From a virus (lineage: Duplodnaviria > Caudoviricetes), in IMG/VR virus record IMGVR_UViG_3300037067_011000, positions 10,632 through 74,631 of that record: 64,000 nt of DNA. One strand, 5' to 3'. Shown piece by piece: positions 6,990-19,035 of the stretch; within the stretch, counting starts at the first letter, position 1, and each line of letters starts with the position of its first letter. Under the pieces are notes generated by a model. The model was not told the origin of the DNA. It searched no databases and was given only the letters and a program-made list of their open reading frames with translations. The position numbers and the translations under genes were made by a program.

Positions 6990-7288
6990 GGATTGCTATG
7001 AATTTTGAGGATACTCAAAATTTATACGGGAACGGGTACGGGAACGGGTACGGGAACGGGGACGGGTACGGGTACGGGAACGGGTATGGGAACGGGTATG
7101 GGAACGGGTACGGGAACGGGGATGGGGACGGGTACGGGGACGGGTACGGGGACGGGTATGGGAACGGGAATGGGAACGGGAACGGGAACGGGAACGGGTA
7201 CAGGAACGGGAACGGGTACGGGAACGGGTACGGGAACGGGTACGGGTACGGGAACGGGTACGGGAACGGGTACGGGTACGGGTATTAA
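6977..7288 (+). CDS. Gly-rich (GNGY/GDGY)n repeat protein
   Basis: 103-aa ORF overlapping the DUF6948-like gene end; 43 X-Gly dipeptides (one is Tyr-Arg). Confidence 0.6.
   Translation: MASVRIAMNFEDTQNLYGNGYGNGYGNGDGYGYGNGYGNGYGNGYGNGDGDGYGDGYGDGYGNGNGNGNGNGNGYRNGNGYGNGYGNGYGYGNGYGNGYGYGY
7025..7282 (+). repeat. hexanucleotide microsatellite, about 43 x NAYGGG
   Basis: Continuous tacggg/aacggg/gacggg/tatggg units over 258 bp. Confidence 0.95.
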
Positions 7289-7316
7289 AATTTTTAAAAA
7301 ATAATTACAAAAGTTC

Positions 7317-7345
7317 TTTGATATTAAAATAATTGTTTATCTTTG
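7317..7345 (+). promoter_or_regulatory. Bacteroidota-type promoter (TTTG-N17-TATCTTTG)
   Basis: Exact TAnnTTTG -7 box at 7338-7345; TTTG at 7317-7320; intergenic. Confidence 0.7.
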
Positions 7346-7348
7346 TGG

Positions 7349-7479
7349 CTGGATTATATGCTCAGTATGGCTACAAAAACACAATTTATTGATATACCAT
7401 TATGGTTAGGGAGTAAGGTACTTTCCCACCTAACAGTGAGCAGTAATCCAGACTTACTCCCCCCATAATGTGTTTTTTT
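7349..7479 (+). promoter_or_regulatory. attenuator-like leader 2 (crossing helices A/A' and B/B' plus U-tract)
   Basis: CTGGATTATATGCTCA 7349-7364 pairs with TGAGCAGTAATCCAG 7437-7451; CATTATGG(TTA)GGGAGTAAG 7398-7417 pairs with CTTACTCCCCCCATAATG 7453-7470; then TGTTTTTTT. Confidence 0.65.
7367..7468 (+). CDS. putative leader peptide 2 (33 aa)
   Basis: MATKTQFIDIPLWLGSKVLSHLTVSSNPDLLPP*; starts 2 nt after arm A and stops inside arm B'. Confidence 0.45.
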   Translation: MATKTQFIDIPLWLGSKVLSHLTVSSNPDLLPP

Positions 7480-7760
7480 ACGTTGGTAAGTCAAAGCCAA
7501 ATATCAAAAGACACTCCCGAACAAAGGATGCTTCTAAGCTAAAAAACTTAATTTTAACGAAAACTAACGATGATGGGCACACTGCAAGACAGAAAATTCT
7601 GTAAAATCCCTCACTTTTTTGGGGGTAGGGGGCACTTGCAGGAGCCCTGAATTGAAGATTTGAGTTCTGAAATTTGCGTTAGCAACTGAAAATAAGATTC
7701 TGCGTTAGCAGATGTTTTACTGGTTCAAATTTATGGGTACTGTACCTAAAAGTGTAGAAA

Positions 7761-7907
7761 ATGGAACAAATATTATACATGATTCAAGAAATAGAAAATA
7801 TGGAGGATTTTATTAAAATATCTTCCATAGATTTTAAAATAGATAAACAAGTAACTAATGAATTGTTGAGATTATTACAAAATATAAAAGAAATTGGTTT
7901 AAAATGA
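7761..7907 (+). CDS. small hypothetical protein (48 aa)
   Basis: Manually translated; ATGA overlap with the methylase start. Confidence 0.5.
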   Translation: MEQILYMIQEIENMEDFIKISSIDFKIDKQVTNELLRLLQNIKEIGLK

Positions 7908-8542
7908 GAGTACTAAACCTTTATAGTGGCTTAGGGGGGAATAGAAAACTTTGGGAAAGTGTTGAAGTAACTGCTATTGAAAACAATCCTGAAATAGCTA
8001 AATTCTACCAAGAACACTTTCCCAAAGATATAATGATAATTACAGATGCTCATGATTATCTACTAAATCATTATTTTGAATATGACTTTATTTGGAGTTC
8101 TATAAATTGTCCTTCACATAGTCGTGCCAGGTTTTGGGGGAGTAAACCAAATGGAAAAATAAAACCGGTATTTCCAGATATGAAACTTTATGAGGAAATT
8201 ATATTTTTAGAACACTATTTTGAAGGTTTGTGGGTAGTGGAAAATGTTGTACCATATTACACACCTTTAATTGTACCTTCTGTAAAACTTGGGAGACATT
8301 TATTCTGGTCTAATTACACTATCCAACAACAAAAATTTGAGGATGCAGATATAAATAGAGGGAATAAAGAAGAATGGCAGAATTTACATGGTTTTGATAT
8401 AACAGGATATAAATTTACTTCCAGAAGGGATAAGATACTTCGTAATTGTGTAAATCCTCAACTTGGGTTGCATATTTTAAATTGTGCTTTAGGTAAACAA
8501 ACAGAAATTTTAAATCGTCCAGAAACATTTTTTAATTTATAA
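7904..8542 (+). CDS. DNA cytosine-5 methyltransferase (short phage type)
   Basis: Motif I LNLYSGLGG; motif IV WSSINC (normally SPPC); motif VI VENV. Confidence 0.8.
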   Translation: MRVLNLYSGLGGNRKLWESVEVTAIENNPEIAKFYQEHFPKDIMIITDAHDYLLNHYFEYDFIWSSINCPSHSRARFWGSKPNGKIKPVFPDMKLYEEIIFLEHYFEGLWVVENVVPYYTPLIVPSVKLGRHLFWSNYTIQQQKFEDADINRGNKEEWQNLHGFDITGYKFTSRRDKILRNCVNPQLGLHILNCALGKQTEILNRPETFFNL

Positions 8543-8544
8543 CT

Positions 8545-9564
8545 ATGAAAATTAACAAAACAGACTTACAAAATGCTTTGGAGAGGGTTAAGCCAGGGTT
8601 GAGTAGTAAAGAAACTATTCAACAAAGTACCTCCTTCTGTTTTTTAGAAGGAAATGTAGTAACGTATAATGACGAAATATCAATCGCTTCGCCTGTGGAA
8701 AATCTGAATATTACAGGTGCAGTACAAGCCACTGAACTCTATCAACTGCTCAAAAAGCTAAAGCAAGAGGAAATTTCTCTTGAAGTCAGCGAAAATGAGA
8801 TACTGATAACTTCAGGAAAGACAAAAGCAGGTCTTATACTTCAAACGGAGATAAAGTTACCACTTTCCGAAGTGGAAAGGAAATCCGAGTGGAAAATCCT
8901 TCCAGAAGGATTTAAAGAGGCCTTACGCTTCGTTGTAAGTTCCTGTTCAAAGGATATGTCCAAACCTGTCCTTACCTGTGTCCACATTAATGCTGTGGGG
9001 TTTATAGAGGGTTGTGACAATTACAGGGTGGCACGTTGGATGTTAGAAGGGGAATTTCCGACAGGAACATTTTTGATACCTCAAAGTAGTGTCTTGGAAC
9101 TTCTGAAACTTGAACCTGTTAAGGTAGCACTTGATGGTGGGTGGGTACACTTTATAACAGAGGACAAAACCATGATGAGTTGCAGGGTGATTGACGATAA
9201 ATTTCCAGACACAAGTAAACTACTGAACCAAAGTGGAAATGAAGTAAGTTTGCCTGATGGAATTACAGAAGTGCTCGATAGAGCAGGGATTTTTGCGAAA
9301 AGGGACAGTCAGTTAGACGAGGATATTTCGATTATATTGGACAAGGGAAAAGTCAGGGTTGAAAGCAAAAGCGAAACAGGGTGGTTCAAGGAGGAGGTCC
9401 CCAATGAAATTTATAAAGGTGAGGAGGTTCAGTTTGATATTACTCCAAGTTTGCTGAAAGACATTCTGAAAGAAACTAATGTTTTCAGTCATTGTGGTAG
9501 GATGTTGAAGTTTGAAAGTGGAAATTGGAAATATGTTGTTAGTTTAAGAGGTGGAAAACAATGA
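8545..9564 (+). CDS. dnaN: DNA sliding clamp (beta-clamp-like)
   Basis: 339 aa; INKTDLQNALERV start; SKDMSKPVLTCVHI...GCDNYRVA; CRVIDDKFPD motifs typical of DnaN. Confidence 0.75.
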   Translation: MKINKTDLQNALERVKPGLSSKETIQQSTSFCFLEGNVVTYNDEISIASPVENLNITGAVQATELYQLLKKLKQEEISLEVSENEILITSGKTKAGLILQTEIKLPLSEVERKSEWKILPEGFKEALRFVVSSCSKDMSKPVLTCVHINAVGFIEGCDNYRVARWMLEGEFPTGTFLIPQSSVLELLKLEPVKVALDGGWVHFITEDKTMMSCRVIDDKFPDTSKLLNQSGNEVSLPDGITEVLDRAGIFAKRDSQLDEDISIILDKGKVRVESKSETGWFKEEVPNEIYKGEEVQFDITPSLLKDILKETNVFSHCGRMLKFESGNWKYVVSLRGGKQ

Positions 9565-10181
9565 CACAGGAAGGGATCTTCTCAAAGACAGAGGTGCAAT
9601 CTATCAACAGACCTGGTGGTAAAACATTGAGTTGCCATTCTTGCGGATTATATCAAAATTGTAACTCTCCTTGGATGAAAGTGCAGGGCACCGGCAAGAA
9701 GCATATTCTCAACGTGTTTGAGTACCCCCCCTTTGAGGATGATAAAGCAGGAAGAATGTTTCAGAGTAAATCAGGCAGGCTTGTAACCAAAACTTTGAAA
9801 TCCTTGGGTGTAGATATACTTGGGGACTGTTACAATATCCATGCTCTTTCTTGTTTTCCTGATAACAAATATACGGCACATAGTGTTGATTGCTGCCGAA
9901 AATTTGTATTGAAAGCAATACAGGAACATCAACCTAAAGTGGTGTTACTATTTGGTAACTTACCTTTACAGACGGTGATTGGACAAAGGTGGAAAAGGGA
10001 TTTAGGAGGGATTAACAAGTGGAGAGGTTGGACGATTCCCGACCAGAATTTCCAGTGTTGGATTTGCCCTGTGTTTAGTCCTGAATATGTGGAAAGGAGT
10101 TTTGGGGAGTTTGACAAGATTACCGCAGAGAATACAGTTTGGGTAAATGATTTGAAACAGATAATAAATTTAGTGGTATGA
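9561..10181 (+). CDS. family-4 uracil-DNA-glycosylase-like domain (N-terminal piece of split PolA)
   Basis: CxxC..C, SCFP and DCCR Fe-S ligands; QPKVVLLFG motif; catalytic motifs degenerate. Confidence 0.75.
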   Translation: MTQEGIFSKTEVQSINRPGGKTLSCHSCGLYQNCNSPWMKVQGTGKKHILNVFEYPPFEDDKAGRMFQSKSGRLVTKTLKSLGVDILGDCYNIHALSCFPDNKYTAHSVDCCRKFVLKAIQEHQPKVVLLFGNLPLQTVIGQRWKRDLGGINKWRGWTIPDQNFQCWICPVFSPEYVERSFGEFDKITAENTVWVNDLKQIINLVV

Positions 10182-12736
10182 TAAAACTTCTTCTTGGTGA
10201 TAGTGCAGACATTTTAAAGACTTTGGAAGATAATTCTGTTGATTCTGTTGTAAGCGATCCCCCAGCGGGCATCGCCTTCATGGGGCGTTCGTGGGATTCA
10301 GATAAAGGTGGTAGAGATTTATGGATAAAATGGCTTAGTGGTATTTTTGTTGAAGTAAAAAGAGTTTTAAAGCCTGGAGGTCATTGTTTAGTTTGGGCAT
10401 TGCCCAGAACCTCACATTGGACAGGAGTGGCATTGGAAGATGTGGGGTTTGAGGTGAGGGATTGTGTGTATCATGTTTTCGGGTGTTTGTCGGAAGATAC
10501 AGAAATATTAACAATTAATGGGTGGGAACATTACCATAAAAATATTTGTTTATATCCCGTATTGTGTTACCTTTGTGAAGAAAATAGATTTGAATTTCAC
10601 AAACCAACAAAAAAATACTTCTATGAAAACAAATATCCCGCTTACAGAATACAATCAGATCATACAGATCAAATCGTCTCCAGAAATCATCGTGTCCTTG
10701 TTGAACGAAGCGGAAGAAAGGAATTTGTTTTTGCCGAAACATTGGAACAGCAAGAGAACATACCCTTTTTGGAAAGTCTGTCAGATTTGCCAGAAACCCT
10801 TTCCAACATACACGAAGGAAAAAGCATTACGAAACAAGACTTGTTCTATCGTATGCAGAGGCATACAAATATCCAAAGCAAAAAAAGGAGTTTCTCATGG
10901 AAGAACAGCACCTTGGATAAAAGAACCTTGTGCACATTGTGGAAAAATAGTGGAAATGAGGAAGAAACAACGCAAGTACAGCAAAAAGGTATATTGCAGT
11001 TATTCTTGTCGTGCAAAAGAACACTCCAAACACTTACTTCTTTTTTGTTCAAATGGCAAAGGGAAGAAAAATCCCAAAAAGGGCATGAAATTAGAGAAAA
11101 ATCCTGCATGGAAAGGTGGTGTAACATATTTCAAAACACATGGGAATTATGTTGGGGTAAAATATGTCAGATGTCCAATAGAGTATTTATCTATGGCACG
11201 AAAAGATGGGTATGTTATGGAACACCGTCTTATTGTAGCCATGCAGCTTCAACGTCCTTTACTTCGGACGGAAACAGTTCATCACATAGATCACAACCCA
11301 ACGAACAACGATCCTTTAAATCTGATGTTATTCAAAACAAATCAGGAACACAAACTGTACGAGGGACAACAGCGACAGTTACAGAAATAGAATATAAAGG
11401 AAATGTGTGGTGTGTAGAAGTTCCCACAGGAGCTTTTGTTGCTCGAAGAAATGGAAAAATATTTATTACAGGTAATTCTGGCTTTCCGAAAAGTATGAAC
11501 ATTGGGAAAGCTGTGGATGCAATAGGTGGACAATCTTTATCTTGGTTTATAGATTATATTTTAGAAGTTGCTGATGAAAAAGGTATAAGTAGAAAGGAAT
11601 TAACAATGTTATTTCCAAGTAAAAATGGAAATCCTACGGGGTGGTTATGGAATAAACAAAAGACACAAGGGATAACTATTGATCAATTTAATAAAATAAA
11701 AACCTTTTTAAATTTACCATTTGAAAATATAGAAGAAACTAAACGAGAAGTTATAGGAAAAGGAAAAGCAGGTTTAACAGCAGGGAGTATTGCTAACTTT
11801 GCAGGGGAAAAAGAATTTGATTTGACCAAAGGCACTTCTGTATTTGAAGGTTGGGGTACAGCACTTAAACCTGCTGTTGAATGTTGGTGGTTGGTAAGGA
11901 AACCCATAAGTGAAAATACAATAGCAGAAAACGTGTTAAAACATGGTACAGGGGGGTTGAATATTGAAATGTGCAGAATCCCTTTACAAGAAACAGGGGA
12001 AGATTCTCGTTTAGGAGGGAAGGGTACATGGTCAACTGAAAATGCAGGTTGGGTTGTAAGTGGGTCAAAAAGAGAAAGGGTTAGTTCATCAGAAAAAGGC
12101 AGATTTCCAAGTAATCTTATTCATGATGGTTCAGAAGAAGTCCTTTCATATTTCCCAAATGCAGGGGGTCAGCAAGGGGATCTTACAAATCATACAAGGG
12201 TTATAAAATCTCCAAATGGGATTTGTGGAACACAAACCCCACGTTTTGATGCAATAGCAAGAGAAGAAAATGATAAATCAGCAGCAAGATTTTTCTATTG
12301 TTCTAAGCCTTCTCCAAGTGAACGTCAGTTTGGTTGTGGTGAAATAGAAGAAAAGTTTGACAGTCCACGTCCTTGGTGTACAGAAGAAAGTGACAGAGGT
12401 AGAATTGCAACAAGAATGGTTTCCCGTACAGGGAAGAACAACCATCCTACGGTAAAATCCATAAAATTAATGAGTTACCTCTGTAAATTGATCACTCCCA
12501 AAGGCGGGATTATCTTAGATCCTTTCATGGGGAGTGGTAGTACAGGAATTGCTGCAAAAATAAATTCTTTTAGTTTTATTGGAATTGAGAAAGAAGAACC
12601 TTATTTGAAAATTGCAGAAGCAAGAATAAAAGCCCACACAGTTGGAAAAGTAACTGTGCCTAAAGTAAAAAAGGAAAAAGTGTTAAAAGTAGAATCAAGT
12701 AGTGAAACTGTTCAAAATACTTTATTTGAATTATGA
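10178..12736 (+). CDS. N4/N6 DNA methyltransferase (beta class) containing an intein
   Basis: Catalytic DPPA motif near N-terminus; SAM-binding DPFMGSGSTG near C-terminus; HPTVK; FG|SGFPKS restored on intein removal. Confidence 0.9.
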   Translation: MIKLLLGDSADILKTLEDNSVDSVVSDPPAGIAFMGRSWDSDKGGRDLWIKWLSGIFVEVKRVLKPGGHCLVWALPRTSHWTGVALEDVGFEVRDCVYHVFGCLSEDTEILTINGWEHYHKNICLYPVLCYLCEENRFEFHKPTKKYFYENKYPAYRIQSDHTDQIVSRNHRVLVERSGRKEFVFAETLEQQENIPFLESLSDLPETLSNIHEGKSITKQDLFYRMQRHTNIQSKKRSFSWKNSTLDKRTLCTLWKNSGNEEETTQVQQKGILQLFLSCKRTLQTLTSFLFKWQREEKSQKGHEIREKSCMERWCNIFQNTWELCWGKICQMSNRVFIYGTKRWVCYGTPSYCSHAASTSFTSDGNSSSHRSQPNEQRSFKSDVIQNKSGTQTVRGTTATVTEIEYKGNVWCVEVPTGAFVARRNGKIFITGNSGFPKSMNIGKAVDAIGGQSLSWFIDYILEVADEKGISRKELTMLFPSKNGNPTGWLWNKQKTQGITIDQFNKIKTFLNLPFENIEETKREVIGKGKAGLTAGSIANFAGEKEFDLTKGTSVFEGWGTALKPAVECWWLVRKPISENTIAENVLKHGTGGLNIEMCRIPLQETGEDSRLGGKGTWSTENAGWVVSGSKRERVSSSEKGRFPSNLIHDGSEEVLSYFPNAGGQQGDLTNHTRVIKSPNGICGTQTPRFDAIAREENDKSAARFFYCSKPSPSERQFGCGEIEEKFDSPRPWCTEESDRGRIATRMVSRTGKNNHPTVKSIKLMSYLCKLITPKGGIILDPFMGSGSTGIAAKINSFSFIGIEKEEPYLKIAEARIKAHTVGKVTVPKVKKEKVLKVESSSETVQNTLFEL
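10484..11476 (+). mobile_element. intein (331 aa) in DNA methylase
   Basis: Block A CLSEDTEILTINGW; block B IVSRNHRVL; block F VWCVEVPTGAFVARRNG; block G FITGN followed by +1 Ser. Confidence 0.9.
10518..11390 (+). CDS. HNH homing endonuclease nested in the +1 frame of the intein
   Basis: CxxC/CSxxC zinc repeats, NPAWKGG, MEHRLIVA...ETVHHIDHNPTNNDPLNL; start may be 10518 or 10623. Confidence 0.85.
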   Translation: MGGNITIKIFVYIPYCVTFVKKIDLNFTNQQKNTSMKTNIPLTEYNQIIQIKSSPEIIVSLLNEAEERNLFLPKHWNSKRTYPFWKVCQICQKPFPTYTKEKALRNKTCSIVCRGIQISKAKKGVSHGRTAPWIKEPCAHCGKIVEMRKKQRKYSKKVYCSYSCRAKEHSKHLLLFCSNGKGKKNPKKGMKLEKNPAWKGGVTYFKTHGNYVGVKYVRCPIEYLSMARKDGYVMEHRLIVAMQLQRPLLRTETVHHIDHNPTNNDPLNLMLFKTNQEHKLYEGQQRQLQK

Positions 12737-13083
12737 AAATAGTTTACATAGCACACCCTGTTTCGGGAGACATTACAGGAAATCTGAAAAAGATACAAAG
12801 TATCATTCGTCAAATTAATCTTTACTACCCTGACATTTTACCTTTTGCACATTATGTAGTGGATTGTTATTCTTTGGATGATGACAATCCTATTGAAAGA
12901 TTAAGAGGTATAAAAAATGATATAGCTTTGTTAAAAGCAGGTTTCGTAAATGAAATGTGGTTGTATGGAAATAAGATAAGCGAGGGAATGAAAGCTGAAA
13001 TTAAATTAGCAAAAGAACTTGGTATTCTTGTTTGTCCAAAAACAACAGAAACTATGGAAGAATATATAAAATATAATCTATGA
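12733..13083 (+). CDS. DUF4406/DUF7768-like (nucleoside deoxyribosyltransferase-like) protein
   Basis: VYIAHPVSG start; EMWLYG..ISEGMKAEI..A..LGI C-terminus. Confidence 0.7.
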   Translation: MKIVYIAHPVSGDITGNLKKIQSIIRQINLYYPDILPFAHYVVDCYSLDDDNPIERLRGIKNDIALLKAGFVNEMWLYGNKISEGMKAEIKLAKELGILVCPKTTETMEEYIKYNL

Positions 13084-13667
13084 GAGAGTTTCCCATATAC
13101 AAAGAATCTTCCATTGAAGTCATAGAAGACTTAGAAATTCTAAGGACAATAACTGAACCATTTGCATGGGACATAGAAACAAATTCTATTAAAAGCCATT
13201 CACAGGAAAGTAAGATAATATCAGTTGCTATTTGTGATAGTGAAGAAAGGGTTTTTGTTTTTATGATGCCTCAGAAGAGAAGTTTGAGGCTTCCACTTGT
13301 GGAATTATTAACAAACCCCAACATAGGTAAATATGCACACAATTTAAAATTTGAACATTCTTGGGTTGAAAGCAAGTTGGGTATAGTTGTTCGGGGATGG
13401 CAATTGGATACAATGTTAATGTGTCATTGTGAAGATAATCGTTCAGGGATAACTTCATTAAAATTTCAGACATTTGTAAATTTTGGGGTGTTTGATTACA
13501 GTTCGGAAATTGAACCTTATTTAAAAGCAAAGGAAGAAAAAAACGCAAATTCTATAAATCATATTGAAGAATTAATTTCAACAGAATCGGGTAAAGCAAA
13601 ACTATTAAAATATAATGCACTTGATGCTTTTTTTACTTATAAGTTAGCTAAAAAACAAATGTCATGA
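13080..13667 (+). CDS. 3'-5' exonuclease domain (middle piece of split PolA)
   Basis: ExoI WDIET, ExoII HNLKFE, DTML, ExoIII YNALDA. Confidence 0.85.
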   Translation: MREFPIYKESSIEVIEDLEILRTITEPFAWDIETNSIKSHSQESKIISVAICDSEERVFVFMMPQKRSLRLPLVELLTNPNIGKYAHNLKFEHSWVESKLGIVVRGWQLDTMLMCHCEDNRSGITSLKFQTFVNFGVFDYSSEIEPYLKAKEEKNANSINHIEELISTESGKAKLLKYNALDAFFTYKLAKKQMS

Positions 13668-14217
13668 AAAAAGGAAAAAGGAAATCACGAGTAGGGGATC
13701 TGAATAGTAATTGGAAGGGTGGTATGACAATTGAACCAAGTGGACGAGTTTTAATTCGTGTAAATCAAAAATCTGTGTATAGGTACAGATTAGTAATGGA
13801 AGAACAATTAGGAAGAAAACTAAAAAGAGTGAAATTGTACATCATATCAATAGTGTTGTTGATGATGACAGACCTGAAAATTTACAAGTATTGTTCCAAA
13901 GTGAACATGCAAGAATACATGGTTTAAATTGTTCTGATGAATCAAGACAAAAAAGAAAAAGATTAGGGGAAGACAATCATTGGTTTGGAAAACATCATAA
14001 ACCTGAAACTATTGAAATATTTAAAGAAATAGCAAGAAATAGGGAACCTACAAGAACAGGAGCAGTATTAACAAGGGATACATGTAATAAAATATCAGAA
14101 TCTCTCAAAGCATTTTATCAAACAAAAGAAGGAGAATTAGCAAAAAAGAATATCAGCAAAGTTCATAAAGGTAAAAACTTCAATGAAAATCAACAACCTA
14201 CACTTGGATTATTATGA
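13664..14217 (+). pseudogene. frameshifted HNH/NUMOD3 homing endonuclease
   Basis: Frame 1 gives NWKGG...RLVMEEQLGRKLK; continues in the -1 frame from 13828 as SEIVHHIN...PENL..EHARIH then HWFGKHHKPET (NUMOD3-like); break at A-run 13822-13826. Confidence 0.75.
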
Positions 14218-14441
14218 CCCTAAAATCAAAAGTAACACCAGTTGAGGATTGGCAGAAAGCTGTCAAGGAACACATTGATAAACTTGATGAAGATGAAAAA
14301 AGAGAGTTTGCACATAAAGTGATTTATGAAATTGCACTTTGGACAGGATATAATGGATATGAGATGATAGGTTTGTTGGAGTGTGTGAAAATAGATTTGT
14401 TGAACGATTTAAATTATATTGAGGACGAAGAAGATGAATAA
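14214..14441 (+). CDS. hypothetical protein
   Basis: ATGA-coupled small ORF inside the PolA split. Confidence 0.6.
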   Translation: MTLKSKVTPVEDWQKAVKEHIDKLDEDEKREFAHKVIYEIALWTGYNGYEMIGLLECVKIDLLNDLNYIEDEEDE

Positions 14442-14646
14442 AATTATAATTGACAACAGAAGTGATTTATTTGCTGATGAAGCCTTTGAATTAGTTTTGA
14501 GAGTTATTAAACGAGGTAGAATATCAAATAATAATACTCAATATTGTTATTTAACTGTATTTACAATTGATCCATGTAAATATCAAGTTAGTACTGATTT
14601 GAATAAATGTTCTGACAGATTTGTAATTGTTAAAGAACCAAAATGA
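14434..14646 (+). CDS. hypothetical protein
   Basis: Likely ATG start at 14434 (track starts at TTG 14419). Confidence 0.55.
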   Translation: MNKIIIDNRSDLFADEAFELVLRVIKRGRISNNNTQYCYLTVFTIDPCKYQVSTDLNKCSDRFVIVKEPK

Positions 14647-14828
14647 TGAATAAAAATGATAAGGGGAAATTCTTGGCTGCTATACAAACAGCAAGGAGTT
14701 TACATTTTATAGATTTTGTAATTTGGGATGTGTTTAAGTCATATAAAAGCAAGAAGTTTATGGAATGTATTAAAAATGGTATGCATTGGGAAGCAGCATT
14801 TCAAACAGCAAAGAAAGTAAAAAGATGA
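14643..14828 (+). CDS. hypothetical protein
   Basis: Stop overlaps the polymerase ATG (ATGA). Confidence 0.55.
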   Translation: MMNKNDKGKFLAAIQTARSLHFIDFVIWDVFKSYKSKKFMECIKNGMHWEAAFQTAKKVKR

Positions 14829-16201
14829 TATATAATCCCCATACAAAAGATGCATATGACTTGCTGCATGCAGGAACTTTAGCCTTACAAAGAGCAGAAA
14901 GTCAAGGATTTAGAATTGACGTGCCATATTGTGAACGTAAAATCCATCAACTTGAACGGAAGATGACATCCTTGGAAGAAGAATTTAAGGAAACTACATT
15001 CTTTCGTCATTGGGAACATTCCACAAGTGGAAAAGTCAATATCAATTCTCCTACACAACTTTCCAACTATCTCTACAATATCAAAAAGCTGAAACCTACA
15101 AAACTTACCGAAACCGGTAAAGGTTCTACTGACGAAGAGGCTTTGGATGCTTTGAATATTCCTGAACTGAAAGCCTTGGCACAAAAGGGGAAGTTGAAGA
15201 AGTGTAAGGATGTGCTTCATGGTTTCTTGACGGAACAGGTAGATGGGGTGCTTCACCCAAGTTACAATTTGTATTTGGTGGTTAGCTATAGGTCAAGTTC
15301 CAACAATCCTAACATGCAAAACGCCCCCAAGAGAGACCCTGAGGCAATGAAAATTGTTCGTACAGCAATCATTCCCCCAGAGGGTTATCAGTTTATGGAA
15401 GTAGACTTCAAGGGTATCGAGGTAGCCATAAATTGTGCATACAATAAGGATACAAACCTTGTTAAATATGTTTCTGACCCTACTACGGATATGCATAGGG
15501 ACATGGCGATACAAATATTTAAACTCGATGATTATGACAAGTCTATTCATAAAGGTTTAAGATATACAGCAAAGAATGGTTTTGTGTTTCCACAATTCTA
15601 CGGTGATTATTACAAGAATTGTGCAAACAATATGGCTTGTACACAGTGGCAGCTCCCACAGGGAAAATGGAAAGCAGGACAAGGGTTAAAGTTTGGGGAT
15701 ACTCATTTATCTGATCATTTAATAAGTAAAGGGATAAAGTCGTTTGACAATTTTGTAGATCATATCAAAGAGATTGAAGATGACTTTTGGGGAAACAGGT
15801 TTCAGGAGTATGGTGAATGGAAGGATATGTGGTGGAAAACCTATCGCAAGTACGGGTATTTTACAATGCTTACGGGGTTTCAGTGTTCAGGAGTGATGAA
15901 CAAGAAAGAAGTTTGCAATTATCCAGGACAGGGGTCAGCATTTCATTGTTTACTAAAAACTTTCATTGATACAGATGCTATGATTATTAAAGAAAAACTA
16001 AGTTCACGTTTAATTGGGCAAATTCATGATTCGGAAATTTTGACAGTTTTGCCCGATGAGTGTGCTTTTTTAAAGGAGAGAATTAACAAGATAGCAACAG
16101 AGGATCTTCCTAATGCTTGGAAATGGATTAATGTACCACTTGCTGTGGATTTTTCAATTGGGAGTGTAGATCAACCTTGGTCAGAAAAAATTGAGGAATA
16201 G
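14825..16201 (+). CDS. polA: family A DNA polymerase, polymerase domain only
   Basis: NINSPTQL, RSSSNNPNMQN, motif A VDFKGIEV, motif B RYTAKNGFVFPQFYG, NYPGQGSA, motif C QIHDS; likely start ATG 14825. Confidence 0.92.
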   Translation: MIYNPHTKDAYDLLHAGTLALQRAESQGFRIDVPYCERKIHQLERKMTSLEEEFKETTFFRHWEHSTSGKVNINSPTQLSNYLYNIKKLKPTKLTETGKGSTDEEALDALNIPELKALAQKGKLKKCKDVLHGFLTEQVDGVLHPSYNLYLVVSYRSSSNNPNMQNAPKRDPEAMKIVRTAIIPPEGYQFMEVDFKGIEVAINCAYNKDTNLVKYVSDPTTDMHRDMAIQIFKLDDYDKSIHKGLRYTAKNGFVFPQFYGDYYKNCANNMACTQWQLPQGKWKAGQGLKFGDTHLSDHLISKGIKSFDNFVDHIKEIEDDFWGNRFQEYGEWKDMWWKTYRKYGYFTMLTGFQCSGVMNKKEVCNYPGQGSAFHCLLKTFIDTDAMIIKEKLSSRLIGQIHDSEILTVLPDECAFLKERINKIATEDLPNAWKWINVPLAVDFSIGSVDQPWSEKIEE

Positions 16202-16236
16202 TTGAAAGATATTTCAGTTTTTACTATCTTAATTGG

Positions 16237-16254
16237 AAAATTAATTGTATAATG
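16237..16254 (+). promoter_or_regulatory. putative promoter AAAATTAATTGTATAATG
   Basis: Intergenic after polA; same motif as 5322 and 23730; 4 nt before the next ATG. Confidence 0.45.
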
Positions 16255-16258
16255 TACT

Positions 16259-16444
16259 ATGAAAGCAAAAGCAAAAGCAAAAGAATCTATCATAGGTAAA
16301 CCTGAAAAGATAATCAGGAAATATGGTTACGAGTATCATCTTGTCGAAAGTGATGACAGGGATAGTTATAAATTACCAAATGCTTGTGCTTTTGGGTATG
16401 TAGGTTGGGCATTAAAATCTGTAAATAAAATAAAAGAGGGATGA
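16259..16444 (+). CDS. hypothetical protein
   Basis: ORF track; coupled to the next gene. Confidence 0.5.
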   Translation: MKAKAKAKESIIGKPEKIIRKYGYEYHLVESDDRDSYKLPNACAFGYVGWALKSVNKIKEG

Positions 16445-16689
16445 ATGTTGTTATAAATCAGATTAAAGAAGAAAAAATAGATGTTACAACATCGGATTTT
16501 CCTGGCATATCACAAGGATTGAGGGATTATTTAATAACAGGATGGAAAATAATGTTTACTATATATTTACCAACTTTTATATTACAAGGGGAATGTTGGA
16601 GAACGCATGATAAACACAAAACAATTGTAATTTTAGAAAAAGAAATTCTTGATAAAATAACAAATGAATTAAAAGCAGATTTGAAATGA
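16441..16689 (+). CDS. hypothetical protein
   Basis: ORF track; ATGA overlaps at both ends. Confidence 0.55.
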   Translation: MNVVINQIKEEKIDVTTSDFPGISQGLRDYLITGWKIMFTIYLPTFILQGECWRTHDKHKTIVILEKEILDKITNELKADLK

Positions 16690-17597
16690 GTCTTTATTTA
16701 AAATACCGTCCTACGGAACTTTCCGAAATTAAAGGTAACACAGACATTGTTGCTTCACTGGAAAAGATGCTTTCAAACAAAGATACTTTTCCCCACTCAA
16801 TTTTGCTACATGGTGGTACAGGTCTTGGGAAGACGAGTCTTGCACGAATCATTGCTTCACGTTTAGGGTGTGTAGGAAACGATTTAAAGGAGTTAAATGC
16901 TTCTGATGTGAATGGGGTTGATACAGTAAGAGAAATCATTAAAAACAGTCAATTTGCCCCTATGGAGGGTAATTGTAGAGTGTGGATAATGGATGAAGTG
17001 GGAAAATTAACCTCAAGTGCTATGAATGCTTTCCTCAAAATCCTTGAAGACACCCCAAAAAATGTTTACTTTATATTATGTACAACTGATCCTGAAAAAC
17101 TCCTTACTACAATAAAGGGAAGATGTCAACAGTTTCAGGTGAAACCCCTGACAGATTCCCAAATGTTTTCTTTGCTTAGAAGGATTGTAAGAGAAGAAGG
17201 GGAAACTTTGGAACAAGAGGTTTATGATCAAATCATCCAAGACAGTTTGTGCCATCCCCGCAATGCTTTGCAGATACTTGAACAAGTATTGAGTGTTGCT
17301 CCTGAACGTCGGTTGGAGATGACAAAGCAAACAGCAGAAATTCAGAGTCAGGCAATTGAACTTTGTCGTGCTTTGATAAAACATGAGAAGTGGAGTTCGG
17401 TAAGTAAGATTCTTACAGGGTTGAAAGGACAAGAAGAAGAAACTATTCGGAGAATTGTTTTAGGGTACTGTCAAGCAATACTTTTGAAAGAGGACAATAC
17501 CTGTGCAGGTTTGATAATGGAAGAAATGTTTGAACCCTTGTATAATGTGGGGTTCCCAGGTTTGGTTTATAAATGCTATACTATAACTAAAAATTAA
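16686..17597 (+). CDS. dnaX: clamp loader AAA+ ATPase (DNA Pol III gamma/tau-like)
   Basis: LYLKYRP start, Walker A GGTGLGKT, ELNASD..GVDTVR, Walker B IMDE, FLKILED, TI.GRC. Confidence 0.88.
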   Translation: MSLYLKYRPTELSEIKGNTDIVASLEKMLSNKDTFPHSILLHGGTGLGKTSLARIIASRLGCVGNDLKELNASDVNGVDTVREIIKNSQFAPMEGNCRVWIMDEVGKLTSSAMNAFLKILEDTPKNVYFILCTTDPEKLLTTIKGRCQQFQVKPLTDSQMFSLLRRIVREEGETLEQEVYDQIIQDSLCHPRNALQILEQVLSVAPERRLEMTKQTAEIQSQAIELCRALIKHEKWSSVSKILTGLKGQEEETIRRIVLGYCQAILLKEDNTCAGLIMEEMFEPLYNVGFPGLVYKCYTITKN

Positions 17598-17603
17598 GTT
17601 GAT

Positions 17604-17804
17604 ATGAAACTTTATGAATTTATGAATAAAAGTAGTGTTGAATACATATTTGTTATAGCAAAGAACACAAAAAGAGCAATTAAATTGGCAAATAAAAATT
17701 CAGATTGTGTTGATCCTGATTATGATGAGTATGATATTATAAGTGATGATTTAGAAGTTGATATGTCAAATAAAGAGGGTGTATATGAAAAAATTATTAG
17801 ATAA
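17604..17804 (+). CDS. small acidic hypothetical protein
   Basis: ORF track. Confidence 0.5.
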   Translation: MKLYEFMNKSSVEYIFVIAKNTKRAIKLANKNSDCVDPDYDEYDIISDDLEVDMSNKEGVYEKIIR

Positions 17805-17820
17805 CTAAAAATTAAATATC

Positions 17821-18027
17821 ATGGAAAAATTATTATTGATTTTAGGTGCTATTATGTTAGTGCTGCTTGTTGCTTTTTTATTAACATTACCTGTAATGTG
17901 GTTATGGAATTGGTTGATGCCCCTTATTTTTGGTTTGATAAAAATAAATTTTTGGCAAGCATTAGGAATAAATATTCTTTGTGGGTTTTTATTTAAAACA
18001 TCTATTCCAAGTTCTTCAAATAAATGA
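17821..18027 (+). CDS. small membrane protein
   Basis: Hydrophobic; PVMWLWNWLMPLIFGL..INFWQALG pattern common in phage membrane proteins. Confidence 0.7.
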   Translation: MEKLLLILGAIMLVLLVAFLLTLPVMWLWNWLMPLIFGLIKINFWQALGINILCGFLFKTSIPSSSNK

Positions 18028-18383
18028 AATGTGCAACGGAATCCTGTGAAAATGAAGCAAGGCTTCATAGGAAGTTGTGTCACAAATGTGAAAAGAAAAA
18101 ATACAGAGAAAAGTACCCTTTGAAATATTGGTACGACACATTAAAAATGAATGCAAAACGCAGAGGAAAAGATTTTAGTTTGACAATAGAACAATATGGA
18201 ACTTTTTGTATGAAGACAGGATACGATGAAAAGAAAGGAAGAACAGCAGACAGTTTGTCAGTTGACAGGATTAAGCCTTGGCTTGGGTATTCAGTTGACA
18301 ATATCAGGGCAATCACTTTGTCAGAAAATGTAAAAAGAGAACGAAATCCTGAATATGAGGTAAAAGAAACTTGTCCGTTTTAA
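18024..18383 (+). CDS. HNH-like endonuclease / Zn-binding protein
   Basis: Cys cluster; AKRRG..FSLT; SVDRI...GYSVDNI motif. Confidence 0.65.
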   Translation: MKCATESCENEARLHRKLCHKCEKKKYREKYPLKYWYDTLKMNAKRRGKDFSLTIEQYGTFCMKTGYDEKKGRTADSLSVDRIKPWLGYSVDNIRAITLSENVKRERNPEYEVKETCPF

Positions 18384-18401
18384 ACTTAAATAAATACAAT
18401 T

Positions 18402-18887
18402 ATGGCAGAATTAAATTATGAGAAGGATCTTAAAATAGATGAAGACAGTCTTGATTTGGAAATGTTCAATCAGGCATCCTTGTTTATGAAATATGCAAAA
18501 CATTATGCAGAAACAAGAAGGACATTGGATGAAGAAAAACAACGTCTTGATATTGTCAGAGCAGACATTGACAAGCAAATTCGGGAACACCCTGAAAAGT
18601 TCAAAATTGAAAAAGTTACAGAGGGTGCAATACAATCTGCAATTTTAACAGAAGGGACATACAATATTGCTTATAAAAAGTATCTTGATGCAAAATATGA
18701 ATCAGATATGGCAAGTAATGCAGTACAGGCAATGAACACAAGAAAGGAGATGTTGGAAGGTTTACAAAAACTTCTTGCACAATCATATTTTGCAGGACCA
18801 TCTGTTCCTCATGATCTTTCAAAACTGAAAGCAGAAAGAGAAAAGAAAACAGAAGTAGGAGTAGGAACAAGACTAAGGAGAGGGTAA
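18402..18887 (+). CDS. UvsY-like recombination mediator
   Basis: DLKIDEDSLD.E...QASLFMKYA start, coiled-coil body; sits beside SSB and RecA. Confidence 0.65.
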   Translation: MAELNYEKDLKIDEDSLDLEMFNQASLFMKYAKHYAETRRTLDEEKQRLDIVRADIDKQIREHPEKFKIEKVTEGAIQSAILTEGTYNIAYKKYLDAKYESDMASNAVQAMNTRKEMLEGLQKLLAQSYFAGPSVPHDLSKLKAEREKKTEVGVGTRLRRG

Positions 18888-18888
18888 T

Positions 18889-19035
18889 ATGTGGCAAGTG
18901 ATAGTAGGTATTCTTTTAGGATTACTTGGCATTTTCATATTGCTGATTGCAATTTACATTGTTTCTGGTATTCAGGCAAAAGCGTGGATTGATGTTTTAG
19001 ATAAATATATTGGTGATAAACTTAATAAAAAGTAG
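18889..19035 (+). CDS. small membrane protein (48 aa)
   Basis: Manually translated: MWQVIVGILLGLLGIFILLIAIYIVSG...KK*. Confidence 0.6.
   Translation: MWQVIVGILLGLLGIFILLIAIYIVSGIQAKAWIDVLDKYIGDKLNKK

Follow-up and report, generated by a model that had tools for sequence, protein, structure and literature searches.

The 64-kb stretch of DNA analyzed here (hereafter, the window) is part of a 74.6-kb record of an uncultured virus of the class Caudoviricetes (IMGVR_UViG_3300037067_011000), rated as complete, and harbors between ~7.9 and 17.6 kb an unbroken chain of replication genes, all encoded on the plus strand. Within this chain, a DNA polymerase of the UDG-PolA type is distributed over three separate open reading frames (ORFs): a domain similar to uracil-DNA glycosylase (UDG) of family 4, with 206 amino acid residues (aa) (9561-10181; Pfam UDG, E 4e-11), a 3'-5' exonuclease (exo) of 195 aa (13080-13667; Pfam DNA_pol_A_exo1, E 2e-11) and a family-A polymerase domain (pol) of 458 aa (14825-16201; Pfam DNA_pol_A, E 2e-40). 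ORF calling and Pfam searches bear out in this respect an earlier note on this DNA, which had described the three domains as separate ORFs in this very order. The ATG at 14825 is the start used by the orthologues of the pol gene, which have the same MIYNPHT beginning. The UDG-like and exo genes are separated by 2.9 kb (break 1), and the exo and pol genes by 1.16 kb (break 2). Directly 5' of the UDG-like piece, and coupled to it by an ATGA overlap, lies the gene of a DnaN-like sliding clamp (8545-9564).

Break 1 of the window is occupied by two genes. The first encodes an N6/N4 DNA methylase of 852 aa (10178-12736; Pfam N6_N4_Mtase, E 4e-25, in two stretches), which carries an intein-like insert (C...GN, followed by S) with an HNH_3 endonuclease ORF inside it in the +1 frame (10518-11390), and which has no homologue in the related loci L003-L006. 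The second (12733-13083) encodes a DUF7768 protein (Pfam DUF7768, E 3e-18; PHROG 355), similar to nucleoside 2-deoxyribosyltransferases. The filling proposed earlier, a methylase together with a DUF4406-like gene, is correct as regards the methylase, the second gene being DUF7768 and not strictly DUF4406. Break 2 contains, as already noticed in the earlier note, a frameshifted HNH gene followed by three small ORFs. The former is a broken homing endonuclease gene (HEG) with HNH and NUMOD3 domains (13664-14217), read in two fragments (13664-13927 and 13891-14217) owing to a -1 frame change at a run of five A (13822-13826); the latter, of 75, 75, and 61 aa, extend from 14214 to 14828. From the clamp gene through pol there are eight real gene boundaries, and each of them (8/8) is an ATGA stop/start overlap. 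No sequence is repeated at the ends of the inserts except the four nucleotides ATGA themselves, and no Rfam family was found at E<=1 on the plus strand between positions 7000 and 19000; with no Rfam intron, no split-intein halves and nothing repeated but ATGA, the junctions lack splice signals and target duplications, as had been stated before.

Alignment to single-chain UDG-exo-pol relatives confirmed that the ends of the pieces abut. In particular, the UDG-like piece aligns to residues 3-206 of the 416-aa fused UDG-exo protein of locus L003 (47% identity) and the exo piece to residues 217-410 of the same protein, so that the end of the former and the start of the latter both lie inside one short linker, with nothing missing in the junction alignment. 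Likewise, the C-terminus of exo and the N-terminus of pol border a short unconserved linker of the fused proteins, such as P0008. The AlphaFold2 (AF2) model of fused P0008 (predicted local distance difference test, pLDDT, 91.8; predicted template modelling score, pTM, 0.90) forms one compact body with a fold matching Klenow-type structures; its sole disordered internal segment, residues 409-416, corresponds to break 2, and break 1 maps to a coil (residues 201-214) after the last UDG helix. Both breaks fall in inter-domain linkers.

To place break 2 in a wider context, the pol piece was searched against 1.8 billion cluster representatives (50%-identity clusters), and the three pieces were mapped on the best 150 matches; the counts given here rest on the 148 of them which span most of the pol query. 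A single UDG-exo-pol chain of 760-1280 aa (mostly 800-910 aa, longer with inteins) was found in 52 of the 148, and the window thus encodes, as was proposed in the earlier note, a genes-in-pieces form of an enzyme that relatives encode as one chain. The two-gene arrangement is nevertheless commoner: 86 of the 148 are pol-only proteins, most of which start no more than ~10 residues, and a few up to ~20 residues, from the start of the window pol. Eight others are exo-pol proteins with no detected UDG, at least four of which are 5'-truncated ORFs, and P0041 and P0145 have truly lost the UDG fold; the remaining two possess unrelated N-terminal extensions. In P0002 and P0005 the unrelated N-terminal 140-190 aa begin like a signal peptide and are reminiscent of a lysozyme or transglycosylase, and represent either an in-frame fusion of a neighbour gene or a wrong gene call. 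Split and fused forms are interleaved in the tree of 151 pol domains, with ~27 changes needed and at least 11 forced by well-supported branches; this is an unrooted FastTree phylogeny in which recombination is evident, and it is read here for neither the direction nor the exact number of changes. Break 2 is a polymorphism of the family as a whole, and no event specific to this phage.

The same is seen in the gene order of relatives whose pol domains are 50-58% identical to that of the window (L003, L004, L005, L026, and L030), which carry the clamp, a fused UDG-exo, a separate pol and the clamp loader. Fused UDG-exo proteins of 399-430 aa are encoded by L003, L004, L005, L025, and L026, and also by the close relative L018, and that of L030 reaches 793 aa, as it bears an intein. 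The exo-pol gap of these loci is highly variable: in L003 (57% identity) it is a 25-nt spacer with no endonuclease, in L004 and L005 it holds two small ORFs, in L026 one ORF of 179 aa, and in L030 an ORF of 292 aa accompanied by small ORFs. The first small ORF of the window is conserved in L017 and L023 at 77-80% identity. That this gap holds an accessory gene conserved among relatives was considered and dismissed, the small ORFs of the window not being homologous to those of L004 and L005. An intact GIY-YIG/NUMOD3 endonuclease gene is present in the exo-pol gap of L018 (L018:1528-2421).

Break 1 has a much narrower distribution. Free-standing exo proteins (195-202 aa, 57-87% identity, with the same start and stop positions) were found in 11 clusters and free-standing UDG-like proteins (204-209 aa, 49-82% identity) in about nine, in both cases from independent metagenomes. 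One metagenome scan recovered 14 loci, and a scan of viral contigs with the UDG piece gave no match. The nearest fused relative is L018, with a pol 80% identical to that of the window and a UDG-exo protein of 407 aa, whose linker, ELSERTFPIYK, resembles that of distant fused forms. In the tree of exo sequences, L018 takes the basal position in a well-supported group which also contains the 17 split sequences and stands apart from the fused forms of distant relatives. Break 1 is likely, as judged from the outgroup state and the L018 linker, to be a derived trait of one close clade with at least 17 free-standing exo sequences, in which the fused form gave way to the split one, and the split plausibly arose once.

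Within this clade, both empty and filled alleles of break 1 occur. L024 is split with no insert at all, the UDG stop overlapping the exo start (GT-ATGA-TACC). L023 is likewise split and devoid of protein cargo; its junction bears a 66-nt tandem duplication of the UDG stop and exo start (L023:2660-2770) with a mini-ORF of 21 codons, which may be the scar of a cassette loss or gain. The filled alleles contain a methylase of the MT-A70 family (L017, L022, and L028), a methylase of the Dam family (L029), an N6/N4 methylase related to that of the window and located directly 5' of exo (L021), or a DUF7768 gene 5' of exo with the same gene end as in the window (L020); the window combines the intein-bearing N6/N4 methylase with DUF7768. 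In all of them, the first ATGA supplies the ATG at which the cargo starts, and the cargo's stop lies inside the second ATGA, which opens exo.

Nucleotide comparison delimits two conserved arms around this junction. The left arm (10010-10181), which covers the final ~170 nt of the UDG-like gene and ends in GT-ATGA, is recognized by an identity gradient: against L018, L022, L023, L028, and L029, the first 390 nt of the gene are 52-70% identical, after which identity rises to 88-92% and, in the final 100 nt, reaches 98-100%. Averaged over all pairs, it peaks in this arm at 0.96-0.99, and fused L018 shares the arm too. The right arm, beginning with ATGA, corresponds to the first ~60 nt of exo (13080-13140), where identity is 77-93% with every relative but L024 (70%); for most of them it then drops to 43-67%. 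Elsewhere in the UDG and exo genes the synonymous divergence (dS) ranges from 0.7 to more than 2, i.e., near or beyond saturation, and the near-identical flanks thus point to a recent shared ancestry of the arms. We infer that the break-1 junction is a recombination hot spot, at which gene conversion or cassette exchange would be guided by the flanks. Break 2 was considered as a recent conversion hot spot of the same kind and rejected, since the 5' end of pol has no rise in identity; the high-identity tract of pol (nt 120-480) lies next to the site at which L002 and L020 carry an intein. In L023, the clamp and UDG genes are separated by an EndoVII-like gene (L023:1431-2072). It seems that a nuclease gene or other cargo can settle at every boundary of the replication module, and local endonucleases, the obvious candidates, may drive both cassette turnover and conversion tracts.

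As for the functional state of the pieces, the pol domain has intact motifs A (D194/E199), B (R246/K250/Y259/G260), and C (H401/D402), the residues of which are invariant or nearly so across 151 family members. Of the motifs of DnaQ-like 3'-5' exonucleases, the exo piece possesses ExoI (DxE; D31/E33) and ExoIII (Yx3D; Y178/D182), invariant in the clade; its ExoII reads N-x-K-F-E, with an invariant Glu (E92) at the position of the Klenow Asp. The UDG-like piece is collinear with its fused relatives and retains the N-terminal Cys cluster, and its match to the NCBIfam model UDG_fam4 (E 2.5e-15) falls below the family cut-off. Its catalytic motifs are degenerate, reading FEYPP for GE(A/T)PG and SPE for HPS, while L003 and P0008 retain GEAPG and HPS. 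The same loss is found in fused L018, and altered motifs occur in several other lineages. The loss as a result of the split was accordingly rejected: inactivation did not follow fission, fused L018 already being without the motifs. The domain is probably non-catalytic, as has been proposed for N4-like UDG-PolAs. Both separated N-terminal parts are under purifying selection: the ratio of nonsynonymous to synonymous divergence (dN/dS) is 0.07-0.17 in the UDG-like piece and 0.15-0.20 in exo, and the pairs compared include some whose dS is not saturated. Taking together the fold of the fused enzyme, the published models of UDG-PolAs and split PolAs and the selection on all parts, the three polypeptides most likely reassemble non-covalently into the three-domain fold of the single-chain relatives.

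An additional feature concerns the extreme N-terminus of this polymerase family, which has a conserved M-x(0-3)-[GS]-F-F motif, present in P0008, P0009, P0041, P0145, and others and represented in the window by G-I-F (9561-9590). This G-[FI]-F motif lies in a segment that is disordered according to AF2, with pLDDT below 55, and it is kept in P0041 and P0145 despite the deletion of the whole UDG fold. A role in docking is conceivable, possibly to the clamp, whose gene lies directly upstream.

The remaining members of the gene chain are a small methylase-like gene 5' of the clamp gene (7904-8542) and, 3' of pol, two small ORFs followed by a clamp-loader-like gene (16686-17597). All assignments in the chain, from the small methylase-like gene to the clamp loader, are Pfam-supported, PHROGs adding the deoxyribosyltransferase-like nature of DUF7768. 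The clamp gene is syntenic in L003-L006, L022, L023, L026, and L030, with identities of 31-79%. No plus-strand terminator above chance was found between 9.6 and 16.2 kb, and the promoter scan was likewise not above chance. TAnnTTTG, the Bacteroidota-type -7 motif, has its sole intergenic copy ahead of the gene chain at position 7338, 5' of the clamp gene. Given the lack of a terminator above chance in that interval and this single upstream motif, a reasonable reading is that the chain forms one operon with translational coupling.

Taken as a whole, it is likely that the window encodes a replicative UDG-PolA-type enzyme assembled from the products of three co-transcribed and translationally coupled genes, i.e., a UDG-like piece, a presumed proofreading exonuclease and the polymerase itself, with an old and recurrent fission at break 2 and a cargo slot at break 1. 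According to this scenario, the exo-pol fission would be old and would have recurred across the polymerase family. The UDG-exo fission would have arisen from a fused ancestor in one clade, through a small change in the linker that produced an overlapping stop and start (GT-ATGA-TA). Once formed, this junction would act like any other boundary of the module: whole ORFs would be placed between duplicated ATGAs and then swapped among phages via the conserved flanks. Most of these ORFs encode DNA methyltransferases, which belong to three unrelated families, and DUF7768 is the other cargo. Small ORFs and homing endonucleases (HNH in the window, GIY-YIG in L018) would be gained and lost in the exo-pol gap in the same manner.

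Several points weigh against this reconstruction. Binding among the three proteins is deduced, and the UDG piece, with neither GE(A/T)PG nor HPS, might act alone or not at all. The unrooted pol tree gives break 2 no polarity between fission and fusion, and recombination between lineages could inflate the count of its changes. The conservation of the flanks could partly reflect a nucleotide-level signal instead of gene conversion. Finally, most of the relatives are short metagenome contigs with fragmentary contexts.

The earlier note attributed the three-gene form to homing-endonuclease invasion, twice in one enzyme. In its general form, this explanation holds that each break was made by the insertion of an HEG or of an HEG-mobilised cassette, as with mobE in nrdA of phage Aeh1, and that the empty sites are later precise losses. 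It draws on the HEGs found at break 2 in two close genomes, frameshifted HNH/NUMOD3 in the window and intact GIY-YIG/NUMOD3 in L018, on the HNH ORF inside the methylase intein in break 1, and on the EndoVII-like gene between clamp and UDG in L023; moreover, the identity gradient at break 1 resembles the co-conversion tracts around HEG cleavage sites, and the 66-nt duplication of L023 could be a repair scar. Yet split alleles with no insert exist at both breaks, and the claim of a double invasion is therefore not supported. For break 2, no HEG accompanies the 25-nt spacer of the split L003, the small ORFs present in L004, L005, and L030 are unrelated, and pol-only genes are the majority state of the family. 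For break 1, L024 has a clean ATGA overlap and L023 is also empty, the cargo consists of methylases and not of free-standing endonucleases, and no endonuclease was found in the recovered DNA of five loci (three with MT-A70, one with Dam, and one with N6_N4). Besides, fission of a PolA by a plain frameshift is on record (PMC10201439). An origin of the breaks by HEG insertion is thus considered rather unlikely.

About equally doubtful is the view that only exo and pol cooperate, the UDG-like piece being independent or decaying, for example as a DNA-binding factor or an unrelated adaptor. The lost catalytic motifs (FEYPP, SPE), the 2.9 kb which separate this piece from exo in the window and the deletion of the UDG fold from the exo-pol proteins P0041 and P0145 are in its favor. 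It has to be reconciled, however, with a dN/dS of 0.12-0.17 against all relatives, with the same motif loss in the still-fused L018, with the constant position of the gene between clamp and exo, and with models of UDG-PolAs which place this domain as a wedge between exo and pol (PMC10201439).

Rejoining of the pieces into one chain by intron splicing, split inteins, ribosomal bypass or frameshifting appears very improbable. Although the polymerase family is rich in inteins (L002, L020, L030, and P0001) and the two frames of the empty alleles are just one base out of register, the search of positions 7000-19000 gave no Rfam intron, no slippery site was seen at the junctions, the pieces end inside the linker and have no residues beyond their fused homologues (i.e., no split-intein halves), and what fills the gaps are complete, conserved protein-coding genes, each with an ATGA-coupled start. 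As to assembly or sequencing artefacts, for which the uncultured, metagenome-assembled nature of the record and the homopolymer frameshift in the nearby HNH gene could speak, their probability is practically negligible, as more than 20 independent contigs (JGI, ENA, and Logan), with 49-87% identity, share these start and stop positions and the fillers are intact genes of kilobase size.

The three-gene enzyme with its break-1 slot, favored here, shares features with several known systems. In single-chain UDG-PolAs (PMC10201439; Missoury et al., 2026, PMC13697223), the same order of UDG-like, exo and pol domains is found in one polypeptide instead of three genes. Their UDG domain packs between exo and pol, and in the N4-like enzymes, whose UDG catalytic residues are not conserved, as in the window, it has been proposed to be non-catalytic (PMC10201439). 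A split between exo and pol has been traced to a frameshift in the PolA of S-SBP1-like cyanophages and called the first case in PolAs, the split T7-like enzyme being predicted to reassemble (PMC10201439); a split DNA polymerase has also been described in an uncultured cyanophage lineage (bioRxiv 10.1101/325100). The S-SBP1-like T7-type cyanophages (Czernecki et al., 2023) likewise have adjacent separate exo and pol genes, a fission in the linker and a complex predicted to persist. Their split, however, has a single frameshift origin with overlapping genes and no insert, whereas in the family of the window it is the majority state, is interleaved with fused forms, has variable inserts and is joined by a second fission.

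Essential replication enzymes translated in separate parts are also known from nrdA/mobE of phage Aeh1 (Friedrich et al., 2007; Crona et al., 2011, PMC3045599) and from the split gp43 of T4-like phages, where a mobile gene stands between the parts and function is presumably retained, as presumed here. In Aeh1 the HEG is the insert and the unsplit relatives are without it, while here insert-free split alleles occur (L003 at one break, L024 and L023 at the other) and the break-1 cargo consists of methylases. As to an HEG as the separating insert, break 1 has no free-standing one, its HNH being confined to the methylase intein, and break 2 contains the frameshifted HNH/NUMOD3 gene together with three other ORFs. 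Fractured genes (Dassa et al., 2009, PMC2677866) are likewise metagenomic phage replication genes broken by endonuclease-containing inserts, but in these the HEG is flanked by split-intein halves; the pieces of the window have no intein halves at their ends, and protein trans-splicing is not to be expected. SPO1/Twort-type interrupted polymerase genes have intron RNA between exons, none of which was found in the window between 7000 and 19000. Finally, mosaic identity is likewise reported at gene boundaries with HNH, GIY-YIG, and EndoVII genes, as sites of genetic exchange between phages (Barth et al., 2023; PMC10448857); the exchange point here lies inside a former single gene, and the units exchanged are methylases, delimited to the base by ATGA. 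The closest polymerase of deposited phages is just ~25% identical to that of the window, and by this measure the polymerase belongs to a separate, uncultured lineage. For a 501-aa protein encoded on the minus strand (capsid/terminase side), no cultured relative above 32% identity was found.

Inteins and related insertions are frequent around these genes. The intein-like insert of the window methylase begins with C-L-S-E-D-T and ends with G-N, followed by S; its endonuclease (Zn-finger and HNH_3) is readable only in the +1 frame, and the methylase frame is also open over ~290 codons. Two copies of TAnnTTTG, at 10568 and 10585, lie just 5' of a possible internal start at 10623. Kinship between the two HNH genes of the window was considered and rejected, with nothing detectable beyond the NxWKGG motif. 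Large in-frame insertions in pol occur in close and distant relatives (L002:2-1591, L020:1007-1624, P0001, P0019, and P0025), after residues corresponding to ~158 (R-S-S-S/N-P-N motif), ~196-212, ~249, and ~371 of the window pol, and P0025 (1417 aa) has three of them at once. The P0001 insert matches Intein_splicing (E 5e-8, just under the Pfam cut-off) and HNH_3, and that of L002 ends with V-H-N, followed by S. In L030 (L030:1020-3401), the exonuclease domain of the fused UDG-exo contains an intein of ~390 aa, which we take to be of the LAGLIDADG type; P0073 and P0146 have an insert at the same position.

A further observation concerns the C-termini of the break-1 methylases, which end with the same tail, (V/I)-Q-(N/K)-x-L-F-E-(L), in two unrelated families: the MT-A70 proteins of L017 (560-597), L022 (4780-4819), and L028, and the N6/N4 proteins of the window (12700-12736; QNTLFEL) and L021 (380-416). 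The codons of the shared tail differ between the methylases. Such a C-terminal motif is present in one of 119 other nearest MT-A70 homologues, which end ~20 aa before the L022 tail, and the Dam-type cargo of L029 has no such tail. The tail fits the consensus for binding the bacterial beta clamp, Q-x-x-L-F. It can be suggested, as a tentative possibility, that the break-1 fission serves as a dedicated ATGA-bounded slot in the replicase operon, trading anti-restriction methyltransferases by gene conversion guided by the flanks, with the clamp tethering both the methylase, which bears this tail, and the polymerase, whose UDG-like piece bears the N-terminal G-F-F motif; if true, the methylase cargo would be wired to the replisome and methylation coupled to replication.

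The first report of split family-A polymerases dates from 2023 and presented them as a peculiarity of a single group of cyanophages; in the large uncultured UDG-PolA family examined here, the two-gene form is the commoner one. The three-gene clade, with its parts under purifying selection, offers a natural experiment that may show which of its covalent links a replicase requires. After fission, the junction immediately acts as a gene boundary and fills with exchangeable methylases, of three families, its flanks bearing a signature of gene conversion, which ties together gene fission, ATGA translational coupling and the modular exchange of counter-defence genes; and the short conserved arms could help to find such slots in other phages.

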